Shown one piece after another: positions 4,577 to 53,458 of a stretch of 64,000 nt of DNA. This DNA is from Candidatus Zixiibacteriota bacterium (GTDB taxonomy: Bacteria > Electryoneota > B3-LCP). The stretch covers positions 48,837 through 112,836 of the forward strand of contig QZKQ01000033.1 in NCBI GenBank assembly GCA_003599535.1. Reading direction: 5' to 3'. The notes beneath the pieces were generated by a model. It was not told the origin of the DNA and ran no database searches. It worked only from the letters and a program-made list of their open reading frames with translations. The number at the start of each line of letters is the position of its first letter. Within the stretch, counting starts at the first letter, position 1. A program made the position numbers and the translations under genes.

Positions 4577-4975
4577 CTTTCGCCTCGGGGGACTTGCCTT
4601 CTCCTCGCTTCAGAATCGCAGATTTTCGCTGACTTATCTGATTATGCAGATAACGTTGCCGCCAGGATTGAAGCGGGAATTCTTGCGCCGCTCCCGAAAA
4701 GAAGGAGGCGAAGTTATCTTGTGCAGATTGGTTAAGAGGTTAGAGTAGCGATTCCTGGCGGCGATGCTCTTTTGTCAGAATCACGGATTAAACGGTAGTA
4801 ACGGATTAAACGGATATGGTTCGACCCCGCTGGGTCGTGATGGAGGAGAGAGCCTTGTCTCCACCCTTGGGGGTGGCTACCCATGTTAATCCCCTTCGGG
4901 GATGGAATCTTCTGGCTCCTGGCTCCTGACTCCTGTTCTTCTGCCTTTTGACTCCCGAATTTTGGATTCTTTACC
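4577..4975 (-). repeat. modular hairpin-rich intergenic mosaic, copy A (inverted orientation)
   Basis: The reverse complement carries the same module order as copies C/D/G. Modules: heptamer tract CAGGAGTCAGGAGCCAGGAGCCAGAAG (4909-4950), CCCCGAAGGGG hairpin, AATCCGT repeats ending ..GTGATTCTGAC (4775-4789), GCCGCCAGGA/TCCTGGCGGC stem (4658-4762), and a second ATCTGCGATTCTGA-like end (4610-4623). Confidence 0.8.
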
Positions 4976-14115: not shown

Positions 14116-14298
14116 AAAACCCCGACTGTTTCGTCAAGTCTTAGCCGCTGAGATTAGAGTCTGACCGGGAAGTGGTGAACGAAAATAAGCCTTCCTCGAC
14201 GGCGGCGTGACCTGACGCGGGGAAAAACCCTGCAAACAACGGAAAGTTAAGCATCAGTAAAATACGGGGGCGAGGCGAGGTATGTCTCGCCCTCTTGC

Positions 14299-14320
14299 GC
14301 ACCCGAATAAATTCGGGTGC
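14299..14320. repeat. 22-nt palindrome GCACCCGAAT-AA-ATTCGGGTGC
   Basis: 10-bp arms, 2-nt centre. Identical copy at 37389-37410. Near-identical copies at 23403-23424, 37499-37520 and 28601-28621. Confidence 0.9.
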
Positions 14321-14436
14321 TCCACGGTAGCAGGAAGTCGCTGAAAGCGACTGCCGAATGGCCAACGGTGACCCGGCGGCAATTAACAGATCAAAGGACT
14401 GCTCCTGCGTCTCTGCGTCTCTGCGAGAAACAAATC

Positions 14437-18581: not shown

Positions 18582-19154
18582 ATATTCACCACAGAGACAC
18601 GGAGAATAGAATCCAGAAGCCAGAATACAGGAGTCAGGAGCCAGAAGCTAGGAGAATCCGAGGGTGGAATGGGTGTTCCTGCCTGACGGAGGGCCGATGC
18701 CTCAGTGGCGCAAGCGTCCCCGCTTGCGGTTATCTGCGGCCAGCCACGAAGTGGTCACTGCGTGACAGAAACGCCGGCCTTACTGATCTAATCTTTGAGG
18801 GCATTGCATTGGGATGGCCATCTGCCGGCGGACGGATTGTGGCCACATGAATCCCCGCGTAGGGGCGGGGCTTAGCTTACCCCTTCGGGGACCCCGTCCG
18901 CGACTCCCCAGGAGTCGAATAATAGTAACATCGGGCGCCAGCCCGGGGTGGAGGCGACCTCGTCAATCCTCCCGACTCTGCCACGCAGTCCTGGGCGAGA
19001 CTCGTCCCGCGCCATAACACCAATACGACCACAATCCTCGGTTGACGAAAAGCCATCCATATACGATGAGCTCAACCCGATTCCCCACCGGGCTGTAACC
19101 TTTGTGAGAATGACAAACAGAGCCAGCAGCCAACAGCCAGCAGCCAGGAGCCAT
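18582..19154 (+). repeat. modular hairpin-rich intergenic mosaic, copy B
   Basis: Starts 1 nt after the ispG stop with ATTCACCACAGAGACACGG plus the heptamer tract 18589-18658. Also carries the GGCCATC..GATTGTGGCC module, the CGCAAGCG-TCCC-CGCTTGCG hairpin (18709-18728, also at 41494-41513), GTAGGGGCGGGGC words, and ends in the (AGCCARC)n tract 19121-19152. Confidence 0.75.
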
Positions 19155-19580
19155 ATGCAAGCACTTCAACACTCCGACGGCTACCTGATCCGTCTGGAAC
19201 GCGGCGAAGAGGTCACCGCCACGCTGACCGCTTTCCTGGAAGAGAAGGGCATCCACGCCGGGACCGTCATGGGCCTGGGCGGCATCGGCGACGCCGAACT
19301 GGGCTTCTACGACCTGCCCAACAAGACCTACCTGCGCCGCCAGGTCCCCGGCAACCTGGAACTGGTGCACTACTCCGGCAACATCACCCTGGTGGACGGC
19401 AAACCCTTCATCCACGCCCACGCAGTGGTATCCGGGGCGGACTACCAGGCGCTCTCCGGGCACTTCTTCAGCGCCAACGTCGTCATCACCGGCGAATTCA
19501 TCCTGCGACCTGCGCAGTGGGAAGTATCCCGCACGCTGGACGAATTCACCGGCCTGAAACTGATGGATCTCCCGAAGTGA
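19155..19580 (+). CDS. PPC (DUF296) domain protein, putative DNA-binding
   Basis: ..LELVHYSGNITLVDGKPFIHAHAVVSGADYQALSGHFFSANVVITGEFIL.. fits the PPC/DUF296 pattern. Start ATG 19155; ATG 19110 would translate the heptamer tract. Confidence 0.65.
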   Translation: MQALQHSDGYLIRLERGEEVTATLTAFLEEKGIHAGTVMGLGGIGDAELGFYDLPNKTYLRRQVPGNLELVHYSGNITLVDGKPFIHAHAVVSGADYQALSGHFFSANVVITGEFILRPAQWEVSRTLDEFTGLKLMDLPK

Positions 19581-20293: not shown

Positions 20294-20730
20294 AATTCAC
20301 CGCAAAGACGCAGAGAACGCAGAGAAAATAGGATCCAGAAGCCGGCAGTCAGAAGAATAGGAGTCAGGAGTCAGGAGTCCGGAGATTCGGACGGCCATCC
20401 GTCAGCCGACGGATCGTGGCCCACACCCCGCAGGGGTGGTCCTTTAGTAGCCGTAGGTTTCAACCTACGGAGAAGGGGAATCCCATACCTCCTTTTCTAC
20501 AACCCTGAAGGGGTTGACCATAATCCGTTCAATCCGTTCCATCTGTTTCATCTGCGATTCTGACGTGGGGCCGCCAGGAATCGCTTCGCTTTCCCTAAGG
20601 GACCACTGCGTGGCAATCCTGGCGGTAACGAGGAATATTTCTCTGTAAGCCGTAGAGCACCCGCTTCAGCGGGTAGCATGATAGTAGCCCAGGAATTCAT
20701 TCCTGGGTGGGTTGCCAACCGCCACCTCCC
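20294..20730 (+). repeat. modular hairpin-rich intergenic mosaic, copy C (most complete)
   Basis: Module order: heptamer tract 20294-20385; GGCCATCCGTCAGCCGACGGATCGTGGCC; CACCCCGCAGGGGTG; CCGTAGGTTTCAACCTACGG; CCCTGAAGGGG; AATCCGT repeats ending ATCTGCGATTCTGAC (20550-20564); GCCGCCAGGA..TCCTGGCGG stem (20570-20625); ACCCGC-TTCA-GCGGGT; CCCAGGAAT-TC-ATTCCTGGG (20688-20707). Confidence 0.85.
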
Positions 20731-21912
20731 ATGACCGCTTCCACCCGCAAAACTCTGAATATCGCCCTGCTGGTCGTTCTGGCCGGATTCCTGGTGCACT
20801 ACAGCCTCTTCTCCATGCGGGAATACGCCGACTTCAAGCCGCTGTACCGGTCCGGGGAGCGGTTCCTCTGGGGGCGGGACCTGTACAACTTCGCCGACGG
20901 CCATTTTCTGTTCAAGTATGCCCCCTTCGCCGGAGCCATGTTCGCGCCGCTGGCGGCGCTGCCCTGGGCGTTGGCGTCGGTCATCTGGGTGACCGGCGCG
21001 TGGGCGCTGCTGGGAGTTACCTACGTGCAATCCCGCCGCTGGATCATGGGCCGCGAAACGCTGCCGCTGTGGGTGGGGCTGCTGGTGTTCCTGGGAGTGT
21101 CCAAGTTCACCTTGGCGGAAGTGCGGCTGGGGCAGGTGAACTATCCCCTGCTGTTCTTCGCGCTGGCGGCCATCATCAGCCTGGGGAAATCCTGGGAAGG
21201 CTGGGGGGGCGCCCTGCTGGCGGTGGCGACGCTTTTCAAGCCTCCCCTGGCGCTGCTGCTGGTAGTGGCCCTGTGGCGCCGCCGTCCCAAGTTCGTCCTG
21301 GGCTTTGCCGTGGGGTTGACGGCCGGACTTTTGCTTCCGATCCTGCGTTATGGCTGGATTGGTACTCTGGACCTGTACCGGGGCTGGTGGGAGGTGATGT
21401 GGGTGTCCTCGCCGGGGCAGATGGAAAGCGAAGTCAACCAGTCGCTGCCCGGAGCCCTGACGCGCTGGCTGGTGCATAACCCCTATGGATCGTCCTTTGC
21501 CACCCTGCCGCCGGAGGCGCCCATGATCATCACCGGGATCATTTTCGCGCTCTACCTGGCGCTGGCCTGGTGGATGGAACTGCGCTCGCGCACCAACCCG
21601 GAATTGGCCCCCGTGGCGCCGGTGCTGCTGCTGACCGGCACGGTGCTGTTCAATCCCCTGGGCTGGGTGCAGAACTACATCTTTCTGGCGCCGGCCCTGA
21701 TCCTGGCTTTTCGCTACGTCTTGCTGGAACGGGGGCGCGGCCGGACGCGGGTGGCGCTGGTGGCGCTGTTCTTCCTGGCGGCGGTGCTGCCCAACTACGA
21801 GATGATGGGCCGGCACCTGCACAATCACTACCTGGCGCAGTCATGGATTTTCCTGGGGGTGGCGGCGCTGATGGCCGCGCTCGTGGTTCCTTTACGTTAT
21901 CGCCATGCATGA
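20731..21912 (+). CDS. GT87/DUF2029-like polyprenol-dependent glycosyltransferase (membrane)
   Basis: About 11 TM segments. The N-terminal region ..DFKPLYRSGERFLWGRDLYNFADGHFLFKYAPFAGAMFAPL.. resembles DUF2029 mannosyltransferase-like proteins. Start ATG 20731. Confidence 0.65.
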   Translation: MTASTRKTLNIALLVVLAGFLVHYSLFSMREYADFKPLYRSGERFLWGRDLYNFADGHFLFKYAPFAGAMFAPLAALPWALASVIWVTGAWALLGVTYVQSRRWIMGRETLPLWVGLLVFLGVSKFTLAEVRLGQVNYPLLFFALAAIISLGKSWEGWGGALLAVATLFKPPLALLLVVALWRRRPKFVLGFAVGLTAGLLLPILRYGWIGTLDLYRGWWEVMWVSSPGQMESEVNQSLPGALTRWLVHNPYGSSFATLPPEAPMIITGIIFALYLALAWWMELRSRTNPELAPVAPVLLLTGTVLFNPLGWVQNYIFLAPALILAFRYVLLERGRGRTRVALVALFFLAAVLPNYEMMGRHLHNHYLAQSWIFLGVAALMAALVVPLRYRHA

Positions 21913-22207: not shown

Positions 22208-22256
22208 GGCTCTCGGCTGTCGGCTCTCGGCTCTCGGCTCTCGGCTATTAGCTCCT
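22208..22256 (+). repeat. (GGCTCTC)n heptamer tract, left inverted arm of the four-helix-bundle cassette
   Basis: ggctctc ggctgtc ggctctc ggctctc ggctctc ggctatt agctcct. Reverse-complementary to 22701-22731. Confidence 0.85.
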
Positions 22257-22305
22257 GGATACTGATAATTAATGCAGACATCAAATAATATCTTCGGAGG
22301 ATACA

Positions 22306-22695
22306 ATGGGCGATTATCGAAAGCTCGAAGTATGGCAATTGAGCCATGCTCTGGTGTTGGATATTTATAAAGTCACCTCTTCATATCCCAATCATGAAAT
22401 GTTTGGCTTGACCAGTCAAACTCGACGCGCCGCCATCTCGATTGCTGCGAATATTGTCGAAGGATGCGGCCGGGGGCGTGATGGCGAAATGTCCAGGTTT
22501 CTGATTATTTCTCTGGGGTCAGCCACCGAATTGGAATATCATCTCCTGGTGGCAAAGGATGTAGGTTATCTTCCCAACACGGAATATGATCGCCTGTCTG
22601 AATGCTTGAGCCGCATACTGCGCATGTTGAACACGTTTACGCAACGCGTAAGGAATAGCTTTGAAGCATCTAACAAAAAGATTGCAGCACGGTAA
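22306..22695 (+). CDS. four-helix-bundle protein (23S rRNA intervening-sequence protein family)
   Basis: MGDYRKLEVWQLSHALVLDIYKVTSSYPNHEMFGLTSQTRRAAISIAANIVEG.. matches the family signature. GC about 42% on a sampled line, against about 65% in flanking genes. Confidence 0.9.
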   Translation: MGDYRKLEVWQLSHALVLDIYKVTSSYPNHEMFGLTSQTRRAAISIAANIVEGCGRGRDGEMSRFLIISLGSATELEYHLLVAKDVGYLPNTEYDRLSECLSRILRMLNTFTQRVRNSFEASNKKIAAR

Positions 22696-22700
22696 CCGAT

Positions 22701-22731
22701 AGCTGAGAGCCGACAGCCGAGAGCCGAGAGC
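22701..22731 (+). repeat. (AGCCGAG)n heptamer tract, right inverted arm of the four-helix-bundle cassette
   Basis: agctgag agccgac agccgag agccgag agc. Pairs with 22208-22256 with about 3 mismatches in 28 nt. Confidence 0.85.
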
Positions 22732-22809: not shown

Positions 22810-23295
22810 ATGAAGCGATATGAAGCCCCGCGCAAGGAATTGATCGAAGGCGTGGCGGTCAAGGATCTGAAGATCATCCCTGACGAGCGCGGCCGGCTGA
22901 TGGAAATCCTGCGCTCGGACGACCCCCTGTTCGTCAAGTTCGGCCAGGTGTACATGACCACCAACTACCCCGGCGTAGTCAAGGCCTGGCACTACCACAA
23001 GCAGCAGGTGGACCACGTGGCCTGCGTCAAGGGGATGATCAAGCTGGTCATGTTCGACGACCGCGAAGGCAGCCCCACCCGGGGGATCCTCAACGAATTC
23101 TTCCTGGGCGAGCATAACCCCAAGCTGGTGCGCATCCCTTCGGGGGTGTGGCACGGCTGGAAGGGGGTCAGCGAGACCGAGGCGCTGATCGTCAACACCA
23201 CCACCGAGCTGTACGACCCGGCCAATCCGGACGAATACCGGCTCCCCTTCGACACGGACAAGATCCCTTACGACTGGGCGATACGGATGGGGTGA
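22810..23295 (+). CDS. RmlC-like cupin (dTDP-4-dehydrorhamnose 3,5-epimerase-related sugar epimerase)
   Basis: ..IIPDERGRLMEILRSDD..GQVYMTTNYPGVVKAWHYHKQQVDHVACVKG.. is the small epimerase-like cupin pattern. Confidence 0.75.
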   Translation: MKRYEAPRKELIEGVAVKDLKIIPDERGRLMEILRSDDPLFVKFGQVYMTTNYPGVVKAWHYHKQQVDHVACVKGMIKLVMFDDREGSPTRGILNEFFLGEHNPKLVRIPSGVWHGWKGVSETEALIVNTTTELYDPANPDEYRLPFDTDKIPYDWAIRMG

Positions 23296-23424
23296 CCCCG
23301 GAATAAATTCCGGGGCTCTCCCGTAAAACCAAGTCACTGAAGTGACTGGCGATGTTTCGAAATCACGGCAGTCTCTTTAGAGACTTTCAATCCTAAAAGA
23401 GAGCACCCGAATTCATTCGGGTGC
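23296..23424 (+). repeat. about 130-nt four-hairpin composite element (copy J) upstream of gcvPB
   Basis: CCCCGGAAT-AA-ATTCCGGGG (23296-23315), AGTCAC-TGAA-GTGACT, AGTCTCT-TT-AGAGACT (23370-23385), GCACCCGAAT-TC-ATTCGGGTGC (23403-23424). Collinear with 37389-37520. Confidence 0.85.
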
Positions 23425-23514
23425 CAAGACCGGCGATCATCAACACTTGAAACCATCTCTGACCAGTTTCCGTTTAATATCAACCCGCATTTCCCCATAA
23501 ACCTTCGATGACCC

Positions 23515-25041: not shown

Positions 25042-25442
25042 GGGGCCGGGATGGCAGAACCGGAAGTACTGCACATAAGTATAAGAGTAGTCAGGAGCCG
25101 GGAGTCAGGAGCCAGAAGTCTCGGAGGCATAGCACCCCTGGAGAACGTAACCTGTCCTCTCCTCTTTTCCCGAACGACATCCGCGAAATCTGTCAGATCT
25201 GAGCCAATCTGCGATTCAGAAAAGAGTAAAATTTCCGTGGAATCCGTGTGATCCGCTCGATCCGTGATTCTGACCATTTCCTGACCGTGAGATTGCTTCG
25301 GCCCGCCCTTTGGTGGTCTATTCTGACGGATGATGACAACCTCCAGGTCACAGACTCGTTCAGGCTTTATCTCCGGCGGGCCTCGCAATGACACTGCGAT
25401 TCGGGCGGAGTCAAGCCCCCCTACGCGAGCAGTCACCAGCGA

Positions 25443-28509: not shown

Positions 28510-28569
28510 TCTGAAGCCCCCTATTCCGAACCCTGCCGCGCAGTGGTCTCTGAAGAAGTGTTGGGCTAC

Positions 28570-28621
28570 AGTGGTTTTAACCACTTGATTGTGCAAGAGA
28601 GCACCCGAATTTATTCGGTTG
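28570..28621 (+). repeat. short hairpin composite (copy L) upstream of the epimerase gene
   Basis: AGTGGTT-TT-AACCACT (28570-28585) then AGAGAGCACCCGAAT-TT-ATTCGGTTG (28601-28621), a degenerate member of the 22-nt palindrome family. Confidence 0.75.
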
Positions 28622-28641
28622 TCAAATCGCGGAGGTCCTGA

Positions 28642-29080: not shown

Positions 29081-29245
29081 AGGGAGCGAGGCTTCGCGCC
29101 CGGGTCGCCCCAGCGCGAGGGGTGGGTGGAAGCCGGGTCGCATAAAGTCATCTTTGATGGGTCGGGCCTGCCTTCGGGCGTCTACCTGCTGCGGCTGGAA
29201 GCGGGGGACTTCACCCGGGTGCAGAAGCTCGTTCTGCTGAAATAG
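29081..29245 (+). pseudogene. orphan remnant of a T9SS C-terminal sorting domain
   Basis: Frame open only from 29081. Translates ..EAGSHKVIFDGSGLPSGVYLLRLEAGDFTRVQKLVLLK*, the last ~35-40 residues of a T9SS CTD. No start codon, signal peptide or passenger domain. Confidence 0.7.
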
Positions 29246-36172: not shown

Positions 36173-36598
36173 GCAAGAATCCAGAAGCCAGAATACAGGA
36201 GCCAGGAGGTCCGGAGGGTGGGATAGGCATTCTTGCCTGTCGGAGGGCAATCCGTCTCCTGACGGATCGTGGCCAACACCCCGAAGGGGTGATCTTTTTG
36301 TAGCCGTAGGTTTCAACCTACGGAGAGGATCAGCCTCCTCCCCTTCTCGACCCCGTAGGGGTCGAACCATGTAATCCGCGTAACCTGCTAAATCGTTGAA
36401 AATCTGCGATTCTGACGGGGAGAGGAAGCGACCCCCGCCGCCAGGAATCGCCACTTAAGGGCGGGCTTAAGTCCCACTTCGCTCCAATCCTGGCGGCAAC
36501 GTGAAGCACCCGGCACACTCTGGATCCCATGGTTCGCTGGGAGGACATCGCCGAGAACCGAGAGCCGAGAGCCAACAGCCAAGCGCCAACAGCCATAC
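36173..36598 (+). repeat. modular hairpin-rich intergenic mosaic, copy D
   Basis: Same module order as copy C: heptamers AATCCAGAAGCCAGAATACAGGAGCCAGGAG, GATCGTGGCC module, CACCCCGAAGGGGTG, CCGTAGGTTTCAACCTACGG, GACCCCGTAGGGGTC, ATCTGCGATTCTGAC (36402-36416), GCCGCCAGGA/TCCTGGCGGC (36437-36497), (AGCCRAS)n 36556-36594. Confidence 0.85.
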
Positions 36599-37360: not shown

Positions 37361-37388
37361 AGCTGGGCAGAATTCAGCGTCCGCCGTC

Positions 37389-37520
37389 GCACCCGAATAA
37401 ATTCGGGTGCTCTCTGAAAGCCAAGTAATTGAAACCACTAAAGCCAGTGGTCTTGAATCACTATATTTCAGTCTCTTTAGAGACTTTATTCCTATGGAGC
37501 ACTCGAATTTATTCGGGTGT
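37389..37520 (+). repeat. about 130-nt four-hairpin composite element (copy K) upstream of ltaE
   Basis: GCACCCGAAT-AA-ATTCGGGTGC (37389-37410), CCACT-AAAGCC-AGTGG, AGTCTCT-TT-AGAGACT (37470-37485), GCACTCGAAT-TT-ATTCGGGTGT (37499-37520). Collinear with 23296-23424. Confidence 0.85.
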
Positions 37521-37538
37521 CATCACCGGACCCATGCC

Positions 37539-38573: not shown

Positions 38574-38852
38574 GATTAGCCACAGATTGCACAGATAAAA
38601 GCTATTTCTCGCAAAGACGCAAATACATCTCCACGCAAAGGGCGCAAAGAAGGGGTTAGGGGTCGGGGGGGATTAGAGGTTGGGAGATAGCGCGTAGAGG
38701 CGGGGCTTGCCCCCGCCCGGTTGGGGATCAGAGTGTAAGGCGGACTAAACGGCAGAGCACCAACCTCTCCCTGCCACTATCCTCGATCCGCCGCGCAGTC
38801 CGCCGGGTACTGGCGTAGGGTTGCGTAGAGGCCCGGAAATAGTTTTCCACCC
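38574..38852. repeat. intergenic mosaic, copy E (variant module set)
   Basis: Heptamer-like words CCACAGATTGCACAGATAAAAGC..CGCAAAGACGCAAAT..GGGGTTAGGGGTCGGGGGGG. GGCGGGGCTTGCCCCCGCC hairpin. GGCGGACT..AGTCCGCC stem (38739-38804), homologous in inverted orientation to 41400-41467. Confidence 0.7.
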
Positions 38853-39623: not shown

Positions 39624-39935
39624 AGACCCTCACCTCCGTTTTAGCGTTGTCAGAATCGCAGATGGAACGGAGGGAACGGATGTTGGTCCACCCCTTCAGG
39701 GTGGCACAGGAGGGTGGGGTATCCTTCTCCGGGGGTTACCACGCAGTGGTCCCTTCGGGAAAACACCCCGGCTACTAAAAGACCACCCTTCCAGGGTGAA
39801 GGCCACGATCCTTCGGTAGACAGATGGCCTTCCCAATCTCCTGGCTCCTGACTCCTATTCTTGTGCCTTTTGTATTCTTTTCTTCGTTCATCTGTGTCCA
39901 TCTGTGTGATCTGTGGCTTCCCAACTCATCCCCTC
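39624..39935 (-). repeat. modular hairpin-rich intergenic mosaic, copy F (inverted); left arm of the inverted pair around the YhaM-like gene
   Basis: The reverse complement of 39649-39788 aligns with 41059-41200 with about 8 differences in 142 nt. Outer end GTCAGAATCGCAGAT (39649-39663). Heptamers CTCCTGGCTCCTGACTCCTATTCTTGTGCC face the gene. Confidence 0.88.
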
Positions 39936-40949: not shown

Positions 40950-41608
40950 CCACGGAAATAGAATTCAGAAGCCAGAATTCAGAAGCCAGAAGAAGAATAC
41001 AGGAGCCAGGCGTCAGGAGCCAGGAGCCGGGAGTCAGGAGCCAGAATATCACCCCGCAGGGGTGGTCTTTTAGTAGCCGGGGCGTTTTCCCGAAGGGACC
41101 ACTGCGTGGTAACCCCCGGAGAACGGATTCCCCACCCTCCTGTGCCACCCTGAAGGGGTGGACCATAATCCCCTCCCTCCGTTCTATCTGCGATTCTGAC
41201 CATGAGATTGCTTCGGCCGCTGAAAAAACGCGGCCTCGCAATGACACTGCCGGGCGATGGGCGGAGATTGCTTCGGCCGCTGAAAACCGCGGGCCTCGCA
41301 ATGACACTGCCGGGCGATGGGCGGAGATTGCTTCGGCCGCTGAAAACCGCGGGCCTCGCAATGACACTGTTAGTTAAGCATCAAGCGTCAAGAACCCCCG
41401 GCGGACTGCGCGGCGGGTTAATGAATTGAGCGAAGGATGGGTTCGGCGCTCCGCCGCTTAGTCCGCCCTACAACACTCCCCACATGAAGGTGGCGCAAGC
41501 GTCCCCGCTTGCGATTGTTTCCACCGGCAGAGACGCCGGCGCTATCCTCTTTTACTTATTACTTATTACTTTATACTTCTTTTATCTCTGACTTCAAAGG
41601 AGCTTTTC
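40950..41608 (+). repeat. modular hairpin-rich intergenic mosaic, copy G; right arm of the inverted pair around the YhaM-like gene
   Basis: 12-unit heptamer tract 40961-41044; arm 41059-41200 ending ATCTGCGATTCTGAC; tandem 60-mers 41204-41369; GGCGGACT..AGTCCGCC stem 41400-41467; CGCAAGCG-TCCC-CGCTTGCG 41494-41513; TACTTAT-type heptamers 41550-41590. Confidence 0.88.
41204..41369 (+). repeat. tandem direct repeat, 60-nt unit x 2.8
   Basis: Units 41204-41263, 41264-41323 and 41324-41369 of GAGATTGCTTCGGCCGCTGAAAACCGCGGGCCTCGCAATGACACTGCCGGGCGATGGGCG. Units 2 and 3 are identical. Unit 1 differs in the AAAAAACGCGG loop. Each unit carries an ATTGC..GGCCGC/GCGGCC..GCAAT hairpin. Confidence 0.92.
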
Positions 41609-52618: not shown

Positions 52619-52671
52619 TGGGCCCAGCAGGATTCGAACCCGCGACCCACGGATTAAAAGTCCGTTGCTCT
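52619..52671 (-). tRNA. 3'-terminal fragment of tRNA-Lys(UUU); 5' acceptor strand and D-arm missing
   Basis: The reverse complement is AGAGCAACGGACTTTTAATCCGTGGGTCGCGGGTTCGAATCCTGCTGGGCCCA. It contains the anticodon arm ACGGA-CTTTTAA-TCCGT, the T-arm GCGGG-TTCGAAT-CCTGC, and the acceptor 3' strand plus discriminator A. Adjacent sequence has no GGGCCCA or GCTC D-stem. Confidence 0.75.
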
Positions 52672-52699
52672 TGTGCGGGAAAAGGGGCAAAATCGGGCG

Positions 52700-52721
52700 T
52701 TTTGCAGTAGTTTTGCAGTAG
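52700..52721 (+). repeat. tandem direct 11-mer TTTTGCAGTAG x2 next to the tRNA fragment
   Basis: ttttgcagtag ttttgcagtag begins 28 nt from the truncated end of the tRNA fragment. Candidate recombinase arm-type sites. Confidence 0.6.
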
Positions 52722-53273
52722 TCGCATGAAAACGGGCCGGACTTGCGTCCGCGTGAGTCCGGTCCGGCCGTTAACGCAACGGTCGCTGGGCCTGCCTGAG
52801 AAATCCCTTGCTCTTTGAAATAGGTTAGCTATCTACACTTTTTCGGCACTATCCTACGCGGGCCGTGCGCCAGGTAGGTATGGCAGCGTTGCGCCGGAAA
52901 ACCGGCAGCAAGCAACTGTGTTTTCGTGAAGGAAGCACTTTCCTGACGGGCGGCGCGGTCGGTGGATGCTGAGCTGGCTTCTCTCATTGAATCAGGCTTC
53001 CCTCGCCCACCTGCTGGGAGAGGTCAACACGTTCCCAGGCTTATAGAGCCTTCCCGACCAGAATGCGCTTGACGCTGCCCCGAAAATATTCTGTCGGGTA
53101 GGGGGGGGTATGTTTCTCCTGAAACCGAAATCCCGAATCCAAGGTGGGGGGCTTTGCCGCCGACGGGAGGTTTTAACTTCGCCCCCTCCCAGAAGCCGGT
53201 CAGGGACGGACTTCAGAATGCTGCCTCAATCAGGAGTGACAAGGGATAAAGATCCAGAAATTGAAGAAATTAC

Positions 53274-53302
53274 TTGACTTTGGGAGAAAGTTGCTCTATA
53301 TT
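53274..53302 (+). promoter_or_regulatory. sigma70-like promoter (TTGACT-17-TATATT)
   Basis: cTTGACTttgggagaaagttgctcTATATTa, 156 nt before ATG 53459. Near-twin of the promoter at 59897-59925. Confidence 0.55.
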
Positions 53303-53458
53303 AGAATTGAGTTCTAACCTGTGGGGGTTAGCGTGCCAGGATCTTCCCAAGCGCTAAGGACATTCCCCTCCCAAAATGGCTGCCCGAAGCCGGAGCGCGG
53401 TGATGCCCCGGAACGGGCGCTTTACGTTTGACCACCCCAAGCTGAAAAGAGACCAACG

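Follow-up and report, generated by a model that had tools for sequence, protein, structure and literature searches.

Hairpin modules with kept stem bases and exchanged tops in the gene spacers of a Candidatus Zixiibacteriota bacterium

The stretch of DNA analyzed here, called the window throughout, comprises 64,000 nucleotides of contig QZKQ01000033.1 (positions 48,837 to 112,836, forward strand) in assembly GCA_003599535.1 of a Candidatus Zixiibacteriota bacterium. The element in question, X, is an inverted pair of short arms, GCCGCCAGGA and TCCTGGCGGC, that encloses unrelated loops in three of its gene spacers. We found that X keeps the base of its stem while its top is exchanged, that it is nested with other small palindromes in mosaic spacers lying in both orientations and restricted to one lineage, and that it has no features of a known RNA family, of an attC recombination site or of a terminator. 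On balance, we consider it probable that X is one family among nested palindromic repeats that resemble repetitive extragenic palindromes (REPs), bacterial interspersed mosaic elements (BIMEs) and small dispersed repeats (SDRs), act at the level of DNA and pad the spacers between genes. As such they look like selfish or neutral repeat DNA of a known kind, rather than the dedicated recombination site or RNA scaffold with a variable payload that had been proposed in a preliminary description, whose observation was confirmed and whose interpretation was partly supported.

The exact 10-mer GCCGCCAGGA occurs six times in the window when both strands are counted, against an expectation of 0.43 ± 0.67, and six occurrences were not attained in any of 100 shuffles. 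Five of these sites, together with one carrying a single mismatch, make up the three X stems (copies A, B and C, Table 1), the sixth (position 21773) being intragenic. The arms pair perfectly over 10 bp in A and C; B and the single copy found outside the window (contig L081, described below) have 9 such pairs and one G.T pair. In B, the right arm has one mismatch (..GGCGGT) and ends in T, which places the G.T pair at the base of the stem. A (reverse-complemented), B and C also have flanking bases in common: the left arm is followed inwards by ATCGC, and the right arm has CAA on its inner and AACG on its outer side. About 32 nt of stem and flanks are near-identical among the copies, and the element measures 57-105 bp in total. 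The stems, their coordinates, the loops of 85, 37 and 41 nt and the conserved loop flanks had thus all been described correctly. Further out, the left flanks of the four copies read ..CATC, ..TGGG, ..CCCC and ..GTCA, the flank on the opposite strand is CGTT (A, B, C) or GATA (L081), and direct repeats common to both flanks were found at none of the four copies.

Once the edge bases common to the copies are trimmed, the three interiors resemble each other no more than shuffled sequences do, both by local alignment on either strand (p 0.14-0.87) and by end-anchored global alignment (p 0.15-0.50). When spacers B and C are aligned in full, the blocks beside X are 89-100% identical (89% over an 87-nt stretch, 27/27 in a 27-nt GTAG hairpin, 16/16 in ATCTGCGATTCTGACG and 31/32 in the X arms with their flanks). 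Because the neighboring blocks are this well preserved while the interiors are at chance similarity, these alignments indicate that the interior was exchanged rather than worn down by drift, as far as three copies can tell, and the loops had rightly been called unrelated. The same comparison bears on a reading in which the stems are binding sites for host proteins, as REPs and BIMEs are for gyrase, integration host factor (IHF) and DNA polymerase I (Pol I), with the stems under selection and the loops and linkers drifting through insertions and deletions. It would account for a conservation that is limited to short blocks between variable linkers, and REPs and BIMEs are known protein-binding sites (PMC3184786 and PMC2817692). 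However, drift cannot erase an interior of 30-40 nt while blocks 20 nt away stay 89-100% identical, and the absence of the element from the nearest relative implies that any role in the host is recent and dispensable, which makes this reading very unlikely.

Among the window copies, loop B is the sole X loop with identifiable content. It holds TTTCCCTAAGGGACCACTGCGTGG, a copy of a 24-nt module of two adjacent mini-hairpins that we call K, while loops A and C each have an inner hairpin of their own, different from one another. The K of loop B recurs at 41086-41109 and 39739-39762 (24 nt, 96% identity, E 1e-6), and there are diverged versions of it at 18744 and 28534. The 5-6 copies seen stand in four different outer stems, namely X, two kinds of GTAG-tagged hairpin and a hairpin adjacent to module W. 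Relative to K, it is the outer stem that is the variable part; stems and tops are freely combined, as the nesting of small palindromic modules produces. As for matches of the loops to other loci, phages or plasmids, loop B corresponds through K to other loci of the window, and loops A and C matched nothing in phages, plasmids or viral contigs. Across five distinct copies of K, 95% of the cells are paired and both sides have changed in 5 of 8 pairs, values attained by none of 500 shuffles, and the signal is removed when the partners are shifted. There is also one pair of filled and empty sites for K (18733-18782 vs. 41524-41540), a comparison made within a single window. That K, and perhaps other tops, is an autonomous-looking, very small mobile element entering or replacing hairpin loops is a possible but rather doubtful further step; in that case, this uncultured lineage of the Fibrobacteres-Chlorobi-Bacteroidetes (FCB) group would run a process of hairpin-tip exchange for which the SDRs of Nostocaceae are so far the only described precedent, with X, the GTAG hairpins and the W-adjacent hairpin as alternative places of landing and new self-complementary tops arising on intact stem bases.

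The combination of a kept stem with a variable top is a general property of the spacers of this genome and is not peculiar to the two modules initially described. A census of perfect 8-bp inverted repeats over 7.9 kb of spacer counted 39 hairpins where shuffled spacers have 8.3 ± 3.0, and when copies are read side by side, the same base with a different top is seen in at least six hairpin families of the window, X included. This upholds the earlier view that the design is non-random and differs from the neutral drift of spacer DNA. The other families (Table 1) comprise two kinds of GTAG-tagged hairpin, the W-adjacent hairpin, module Z and the GTTGGGTTA pair, with tops that range from a few nucleotides to an unrelated interior of about 60 nt. 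A family of perfect palindromes of 22-25 nt, CACCCGAATAAATTCGGGTG, was observed as well (14298-14322, 23294-23318, 23402-23426, 28600-28624, 37388-37412 and 37498-37522); one of its six copies has the compensatory stem variant CCCCGGAATAAATTCCGGGG, and here the top is conserved and the base variable, the reverse of X.

The second module that had been given the same design is Y, GGCGGACT..AGTCCGCC, with an 8-bp stem. Its coordinates and its loops of 50 and 52 nt were right, but the replacement of its loop was not upheld. The two copies align from end to end, with a conservation that extends far past the 8-bp stem (about 21/25 in the left part and 20/20 in the right), and only a centre of 22-24 nt is without significant similarity. 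As they are collinear, alignable and of almost the same length, the two look like diverged copies of a single element of about 75 nt, judged by this alignment, which is the ordinary divergence that the preliminary description itself had named as speaking against loop replacement.

X is part of a larger arrangement. Many spacers measure 250-650 nt and are filled by one mosaic of blocks that follow each other in constant order, in either orientation: an array of tandem heptamers (AGCCAGG/AGAATCC type), small hairpins of which one is terminator-like, a GTAG-tagged hairpin, CCCTGAAGGGGTGGACCAT, a run of AATCCG-like units, ATCTGCGATTCTGAC, and then X or other modules (Z, Y, W). The order is constant in at least five spacers and the units come from several unrelated families; a regular alternation of orientation of the BIME type was not seen. 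About 70 nt upstream of X align among A (reverse-complemented), B and C, comprising CCCnnAGGGGTyGAmCCAT, the AATCCG run and GATTCTGAC, and the position of X is fixed, since it always follows GATTCTGAC and a linker of 4-20 nt; within the window, it never occurs outside the mosaic. Because these upstream blocks co-align and the whole mosaic inverts together with X in spacer A, X is the final block in a repeat unit of larger size, found in both orientations relative to transcription. The GC skew has no switch over 1-42 kb, so that both orientations of the mosaic probably also lie on one replichore. A possible pairing next to the stem was noticed here: GCGATTC (20555-20561, in ATCTGCGATTCTGAC) is complementary to GAATCGC (20578-20584, the end of the left arm plus the inner flank of X), and these 7 bp would compete with the X stem. 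The pairing is also possible in copy C and, as a G.U variant, in copy A; as it occurs only in mutually duplicated copies, it has no independent support.

The distribution of X was followed by pattern scans that covered 185,579 species-representative genomes, a set to which the genome of the window does not belong, as well as metagenome contigs, where it is likewise missing. Among the species-representative genomes, the two-arm patterns and the right arm with its flank gave chance matches only, mostly inside open reading frames (ORFs) of unrelated taxa. The metagenome contigs yielded 20 matches, of which 19 were due to chance and one was a true relative, on contig L081 (also L156); these contigs of 2.1-2.5 kb hold the only X copy found outside the window. 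It stands alone in a 114-nt spacer between two genes for secreted proteins, and its stem is identical to that of X in the window, although the two genomes differ in G+C content (62% vs. 53%). Its loop is of the K type and alignable to loop B (p 0.0005); the second mini-hairpin has been wholly exchanged (CCACTGCGTGG to TGGCTATGCCA) with the pairing kept. Nothing was found in the scan of viral contigs, and the region of copy A matched neither phages nor plasmids by BLAST.

The closest relative by protein was identified through the YhaM homologue P0002 (75% amino acid identity) on contig L155 of GCA_040960625.1, which has the same gene order. The spacers in L155 measure 22-242 nt, against 237-659 nt in the window, and none of the modules is present in its orthologous spacers. 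A more distant relative (L101, 67%) shares only a heptamer array, (TTCTGGA/TTCTGAA)n, which lies at 8495-8560 of L101, directly upstream of its gene for a threonine aldolase-type lyase. As the modules are absent from L155 and this array is common to L101, sequence comparison places the hairpin mosaics as recent, lineage-specific additions and the heptamer arrays as older. By the YhaM-type gene, the lineage itself is nearer to candidate division LCP-89, the nearest named homologue (65%), than to metagenome-assembled genomes labelled Zixibacteria (about 40%).

The perfect 10-bp inverted ends, the conserved sub-terminal bases, the size of 57-105 bp, the occurrence in both orientations, the intergenic position and the absence from the relative would also suit a miniature transposable element with inverted repeats (MITE), whose arms of 10-15 bp would be terminal inverted repeats for a transposase encoded elsewhere and whose loops would be internal remnants or captured pieces, and families of MITEs are known whose inverted repeats are also those of a resident insertion sequence (IS) (PMC3184786). 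Yet flanking direct repeats are missing at all four copies, X always occupies the same place in the mosaic instead of independent sites, no transposase was seen among the window ORFs scanned, and the scans of species-representative genomes returned no element with X ends, only chance matches that lay mostly in coding DNA. We therefore regard a MITE as unlikely.

Alternatively, X, or X together with K, could be a structured RNA in which the closing stem holds a variable domain, serving as a signal for RNA stability or processing or as a small RNA. The identity of the stem in two genomes, a G.U-compatible base pair shared by B and L081 on the strand of the flanking genes, the covariation of the K hairpins and folds of B and L081 that are more stable than those of shuffled sequences (z -3.0 and -3.9) are what such an RNA would be expected to offer. 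Nevertheless, copy A and its surrounding mosaic are inverted relative to genes that lie uniformly on the + strand, which makes copy A antisense to its neighbors; the strand that folds better is inconsistent (forward for B, reverse for A and C); orthologous spacers show no conservation of X; there is no T-run behind the stem, and a terminator scan did not call X. X, Y and K had no match in Rfam at the gathering score over the whole window, nor at E ≤ 1 within 18500-42000, a range that excludes copy A. Compensatory changes, moreover, can arise by templated repair alone: in quasipalindrome mutagenesis, it produces them in DNA palindromes that have no RNA function, so that covariation is no proof of such a function here. 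Taken together, an RNA seems improbable. Four RNA-level candidates of other kinds were rejected. An intrinsic terminator does not fit, as no T-run follows X and the scan called none of the three copies, but another hairpin of the mosaic (36277-36291); a retron or other reverse transcriptase-linked RNA has no reverse transcriptase gene nearby; an ORF-less group II intron has no Rfam match and the GTAG hairpin lacks a domain V bulge; hammerhead and other small ribozymes have neither an Rfam match nor core motifs.

Some further signals in the spacers touch on transcription. In each forward mosaic, a terminator-like hairpin, CACCCCGnAGGGGTG (36277-36300, also at about 20425-20446 and 41050-41072), precedes a T-rich run, after which comes the GTAG hairpin. 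Its forward copies could end transcription of the gene upstream, which those in the inverted spacers A and F could not. At 20496-20524, within the conserved block ..GGGGTTGACCATAATCC.., there is a weak sigma-70-like match (TCTACA-17-CATAAT, 9/12), measured against a consensus that may not be that of this lineage; it gives a very weak hint that there might be an outward-facing promoter in the mosaic, whose leader would include X. A sub-threshold Rfam match to Acido-Lenti-1 (26.3 bits vs. a gathering score of 37) was recorded at 20675-20707 on the - strand; it falls on GTAGCCCAGGAATTCATTCCTGGGTGGG, a hairpin with a GTAG tag that lies just upstream of the GT87 gene.

The attC sites of integrons are folded sites whose stem base is conserved and whose centre varies, and the overall design of X, with centres of 37-85 nt, is similar. 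If X were a site-specific recombination site of this kind, folded as single-stranded DNA, core sites, cassettes and an integrase would be expected beside it; the arms, as read from the sequence, do not fit the core sites RYYYAAC/GTTRRRY, the genes on either side are no cassettes but housekeeping genes, whose order is that of the relative, no integrase was seen among the window ORFs scanned, and loop B is a house repeat. An attC-like site is accordingly scarcely credible. Nor is the idea of a recombination site or RNA scaffold devoted to a payload supported, as X is one block of a mosaic, occurs in both orientations and is absent from the orthologous spacers of the relative, as loop B holds K and no foreign DNA, and as neither an integrase (among the window ORFs scanned) nor cassettes, an Rfam match or a strand-consistent fold were found.

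The likeness to REPs and BIMEs (Di Nocera et al. 2013, PMC3733652; Nunvar et al. 2010, PMC2817692) consists in G+C-rich intergenic hairpins set in mosaics, in both orientations, with a kept stem and alternative self-complementary loops. A 5' GTAG tag, as in GTAG-tagged REPs, is present on the hairpins at 20447, 36300, 41073, 38694 and 18859 and on the second copy of Y, whose first copy has GTAA. X differs, as it has neither a GTAG nor a CGTC tag, three of its four copies having CGTT on the opposite strand, so that Y comes close to this class and X does not. REPs with such tags number tens to thousands per genome and often come with a gene for a Y1 transposase (RAYT). Described GTAG/CGTC REPs have a stem of 5-13 bp and a loop of 2-20 bp (Table 1 of PMC3733652); the stems of X (10 bp) and Y (8 bp) fit these ranges, while their loops (37, 41 and 85 nt; 50 and 52 nt) do not. 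A REP dimer was ruled out, as the X arms are not themselves palindromes. The short, non-coding, lineage-specific and intergenic elements that are grouped as MITEs or that are palindrome-associated and derive from IS200/IS605 ends, which have inverted ends and fold into long hairpins (PMC3184786), are alike in these respects and unlike X in that it has no target-site duplication, no partner IS in sight and a fixed place in a larger mosaic. From integron attC sites, which share the folded form, the conserved base and a centre that is variable and about as long, X is separated by the missing core-site consensus, cassettes and integrase and by the housekeeping synteny on both sides.

The SDRs of Nostocaceae, described by Elhai et al. 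in 2008 (Genome Res 18:1484), are reportedly units of 21-27 nt with a shared fold that occur inside one another as well as inside arrays of tandem heptamers. K, with 24 nt, is within this range, keeps its fold through compensatory changes and is nested in other repeats; the mosaics are embedded in or bounded by tandem heptamer arrays, as SDRs often are. The differences are that the window comes from another phylum, an uncultured lineage of the FCB group, that the likeness is one of design, that only 5-6 copies of K were seen, and that the insertion site of K is not a fixed short palindrome like HIP1. The article by Elhai et al. is cited in PMC3116915, PMC5861425 and PMC4390886.

With these comparisons in mind, we return to the reading of X as one family of DNA-level palindromic repeats, from which we infer mobility of the modules, an enzyme behind it and a manner of top replacement. 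Short palindromic modules and tandem heptamer arrays would build lineage-specific mosaic fillers of 250-650 nt, in which the modules act as DNA. Each would keep the base of its stem and a few adjoining bases, and the top of the hairpin would be the site of exchange, which either another small hairpin module, such as K, or a small unrelated hairpin would fill. When hairpins are extruded in single-stranded DNA, their loops could serve as sites where other small palindromic modules are inserted or replaced, and the stem bases may be kept uniform by copying from a few master forms or by short-patch gene conversion between copies; alternatively, gene conversion could homogenize only the shared blocks. 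Templated repair within the palindrome would keep new tops self-complementary. Parallels have been published: REP families in which a single stem carries alternative self-complementary loops, REP dimers whose spacers of 20-100 bp vary (PMC3733652), REPs as preferred targets of insertion sequences (PMC1525189), and SDR modules that insert into the HIP1 palindrome in cyanobacteria (PMC4390886 and PMC5861425). For the host, the effect is probably that of mostly neutral padding, though the mosaic has a terminator-like hairpin.

Several observations weigh against this reading. Target-site duplications do not mark X, and no transposase, RAYT/Y1 (REP-associated tyrosine) transposase or integrase was found among the window ORFs scanned. 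Between the simple and the K-bearing form of the first GTAG hairpin, the inner stem has been replaced too, so that no clean insertion is seen. Loops A and C match the rest of the window in nothing longer than words of 9-10 nt and contain no recognizable repeat module. The identity of the X stem across genomes of 62% and 53% G+C would fit selection on an RNA or a protein-binding site as well, and the same holds for the hairpin-preserving changes in K, which could reflect selection on an RNA or protein-binding structure. Finally, with three copies of X in the window and one outside, all statistics are those of a small sample.

Table 1 Coordinates of X, Y, K, other hairpin modules and mosaic spacers (positions in the window)
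Feature	Position	Strand or orientation	Description
X copy A	4658..4762	- (inverted)	10-bp arms 4658-4667/4753-4762; 85-nt loop with its own inner hairpin
X copy B	20570..20626	+	arms 20570-20579/20617-20626; 37-nt loop with K at 20590-20613
X copy C	36437..36497	+	arms 36437-36446/36488-36497; 41-nt loop, 7-bp inner hairpin ACTTAAG..CTTAAGT
Y copy 1	38739..38804	+	50-nt loop; GTAA precedes
Y copy 2	41400..41467	- (inverted)	52-nt loop; GTAG tag precedes on own strand; collinear with copy 1
K	41086..41109	+	TTTCCCGAAGGGACCACTGCGTGG, inside GTAG-tagged hairpin 41073-41122
K, twin	39739-39762	inverted	inside hairpin 39726-39775
K, variant	18744..18765	+	CCACGAAGTGGTCACTGCGTGA, inside W-adjacent hairpin
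K, decayed	28534..28557	-	inside another GTAG-tagged hairpin
GTAG hairpin a, simple	20447..20473; identical at 36300-36326	+	GTAGCCGTAGGTTTCAACCTACGGAGA = GTAGCCG-TAGGT-TTCA-ACCTA-CGGAGA
GTAG hairpin a, K-bearing	41073-41122; 39726-39775	second copy inverted	GTAGCCG-GGG-[K]-CCC-CGGAGA; base GTAGCCG..CGGAGA as in simple form
GTAG hairpin b	38694..38717	+	GTAGAGGCGGGGC-TTG-CCCCCGCC
GTAG hairpin b, second copy	18859-18899		same base; 21-nt top containing hairpin CCCCTTCGGGG
W-adjacent hairpin, K-free	41524-41540		CCGGCAG-AGAC-GCCGG
W-adjacent hairpin, filled	18733-18782		CGGCC..GCCGG; 22-25-nt K insert flanked by CAG..CAG
Module Z	41204..41383	+	2.8-3 tandem 60-nt units, GAGATTGCTTCGGCC..GGCCTCGCAATGACAC; 13-nt top
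Module Z, second copy	25289-25394		same ends; unrelated interior of about 60 nt
GTTGGGTTA pair	25447; 25495		loops of 8 and 13 nt
Mosaic spacer A	4577..4975	-	block order as in B and C; whole mosaic and heptamer array inverted together with X
Mosaic spacer B	20294..20706	+	heptamer array, small hairpins, terminator-like hairpin, GTAG hairpin, CCCTGAAGGGGTTGACCAT, AATCCG run, ATCTGCGATTCTGAC, X
Mosaic spacer C	36173..36598	+	order as in B; heptamer arrays at both ends
Mosaic spacer E	40950..41608	+	after ATCTGCGATTCTGAC: Z x3, Y copy 2 and W in place of X
Mosaic spacer F	39624-39860	inverted	partial twin of spacer E

According to a gene map based on the G+C content of third codon positions (GC3), the genes at 1-42 kb lie almost all on the + strand. 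By Pfam, those next to the spacers are housekeeping genes and encode an aminotransferase, an ABC transporter, a deoxynucleoside kinase, GT87, radical SAM enzymes, a threonine aldolase-type lyase, a YhaM-type nuclease, an M42 peptidase, GcpE, Maf and RodZ, among others.

Some observations concern heptamer arrays and genes away from X. In the region 18948-19160, the PCC domain of the ORF called from 18948 does not begin before residue 79, so that the true start of this ORF is probably further downstream; the heptamer array at 19118-19153 would then be spacer, and mosaic H (18582 to about 19160) would be bounded by heptamers at both ends, like spacers C and G. A small AT-rich gene at 22306-22695 encodes a 23S rRNA-intervening-sequence protein (PF05635, E 4e-36) and lies between two heptamer arrays that are inverted relative to each other, (GGCTCTC)n (22208-22247) and (GAGAGCC)n (22699-22731), so that 22208-22731 looks like an inserted unit whose end heptamers are of the same kind as those bounding the mosaics. 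At 29117-29224 (- strand), in what is otherwise spacer, tails of type IX secretion system (T9SS) sorting domains match a 36-residue remnant by tblastn with 53-58% identity, which suggests the decayed end of a gene for a secreted protein. A partial tRNA match (30.6 bits vs. a gathering score of 29, model positions 10-63) lies at 52627-52676 on the - strand and adjoins a long non-coding stretch (52691-53458).

If the reading of X as palindromic repeat DNA is true, it would represent repeat biology of an ordinary sort in an unusual setting, namely an uncultured lineage of which little is known and whose spacers have been enlarged several-fold by nested palindromic modules. For annotation, it carries the warning that such spacers mimic structured RNAs, as they offer stable folds, covariation and conserved stems. 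How very small palindromic modules move has been an open question since REPs and SDRs were described, and the six families with a kept base and an exchanged top, together with a 24-nt module found in four stems, would provide a compact natural data set on the moving and replacement of such modules. What interest remains beyond this attaches to K, as a possible very small mobile module outside the cyanobacteria.

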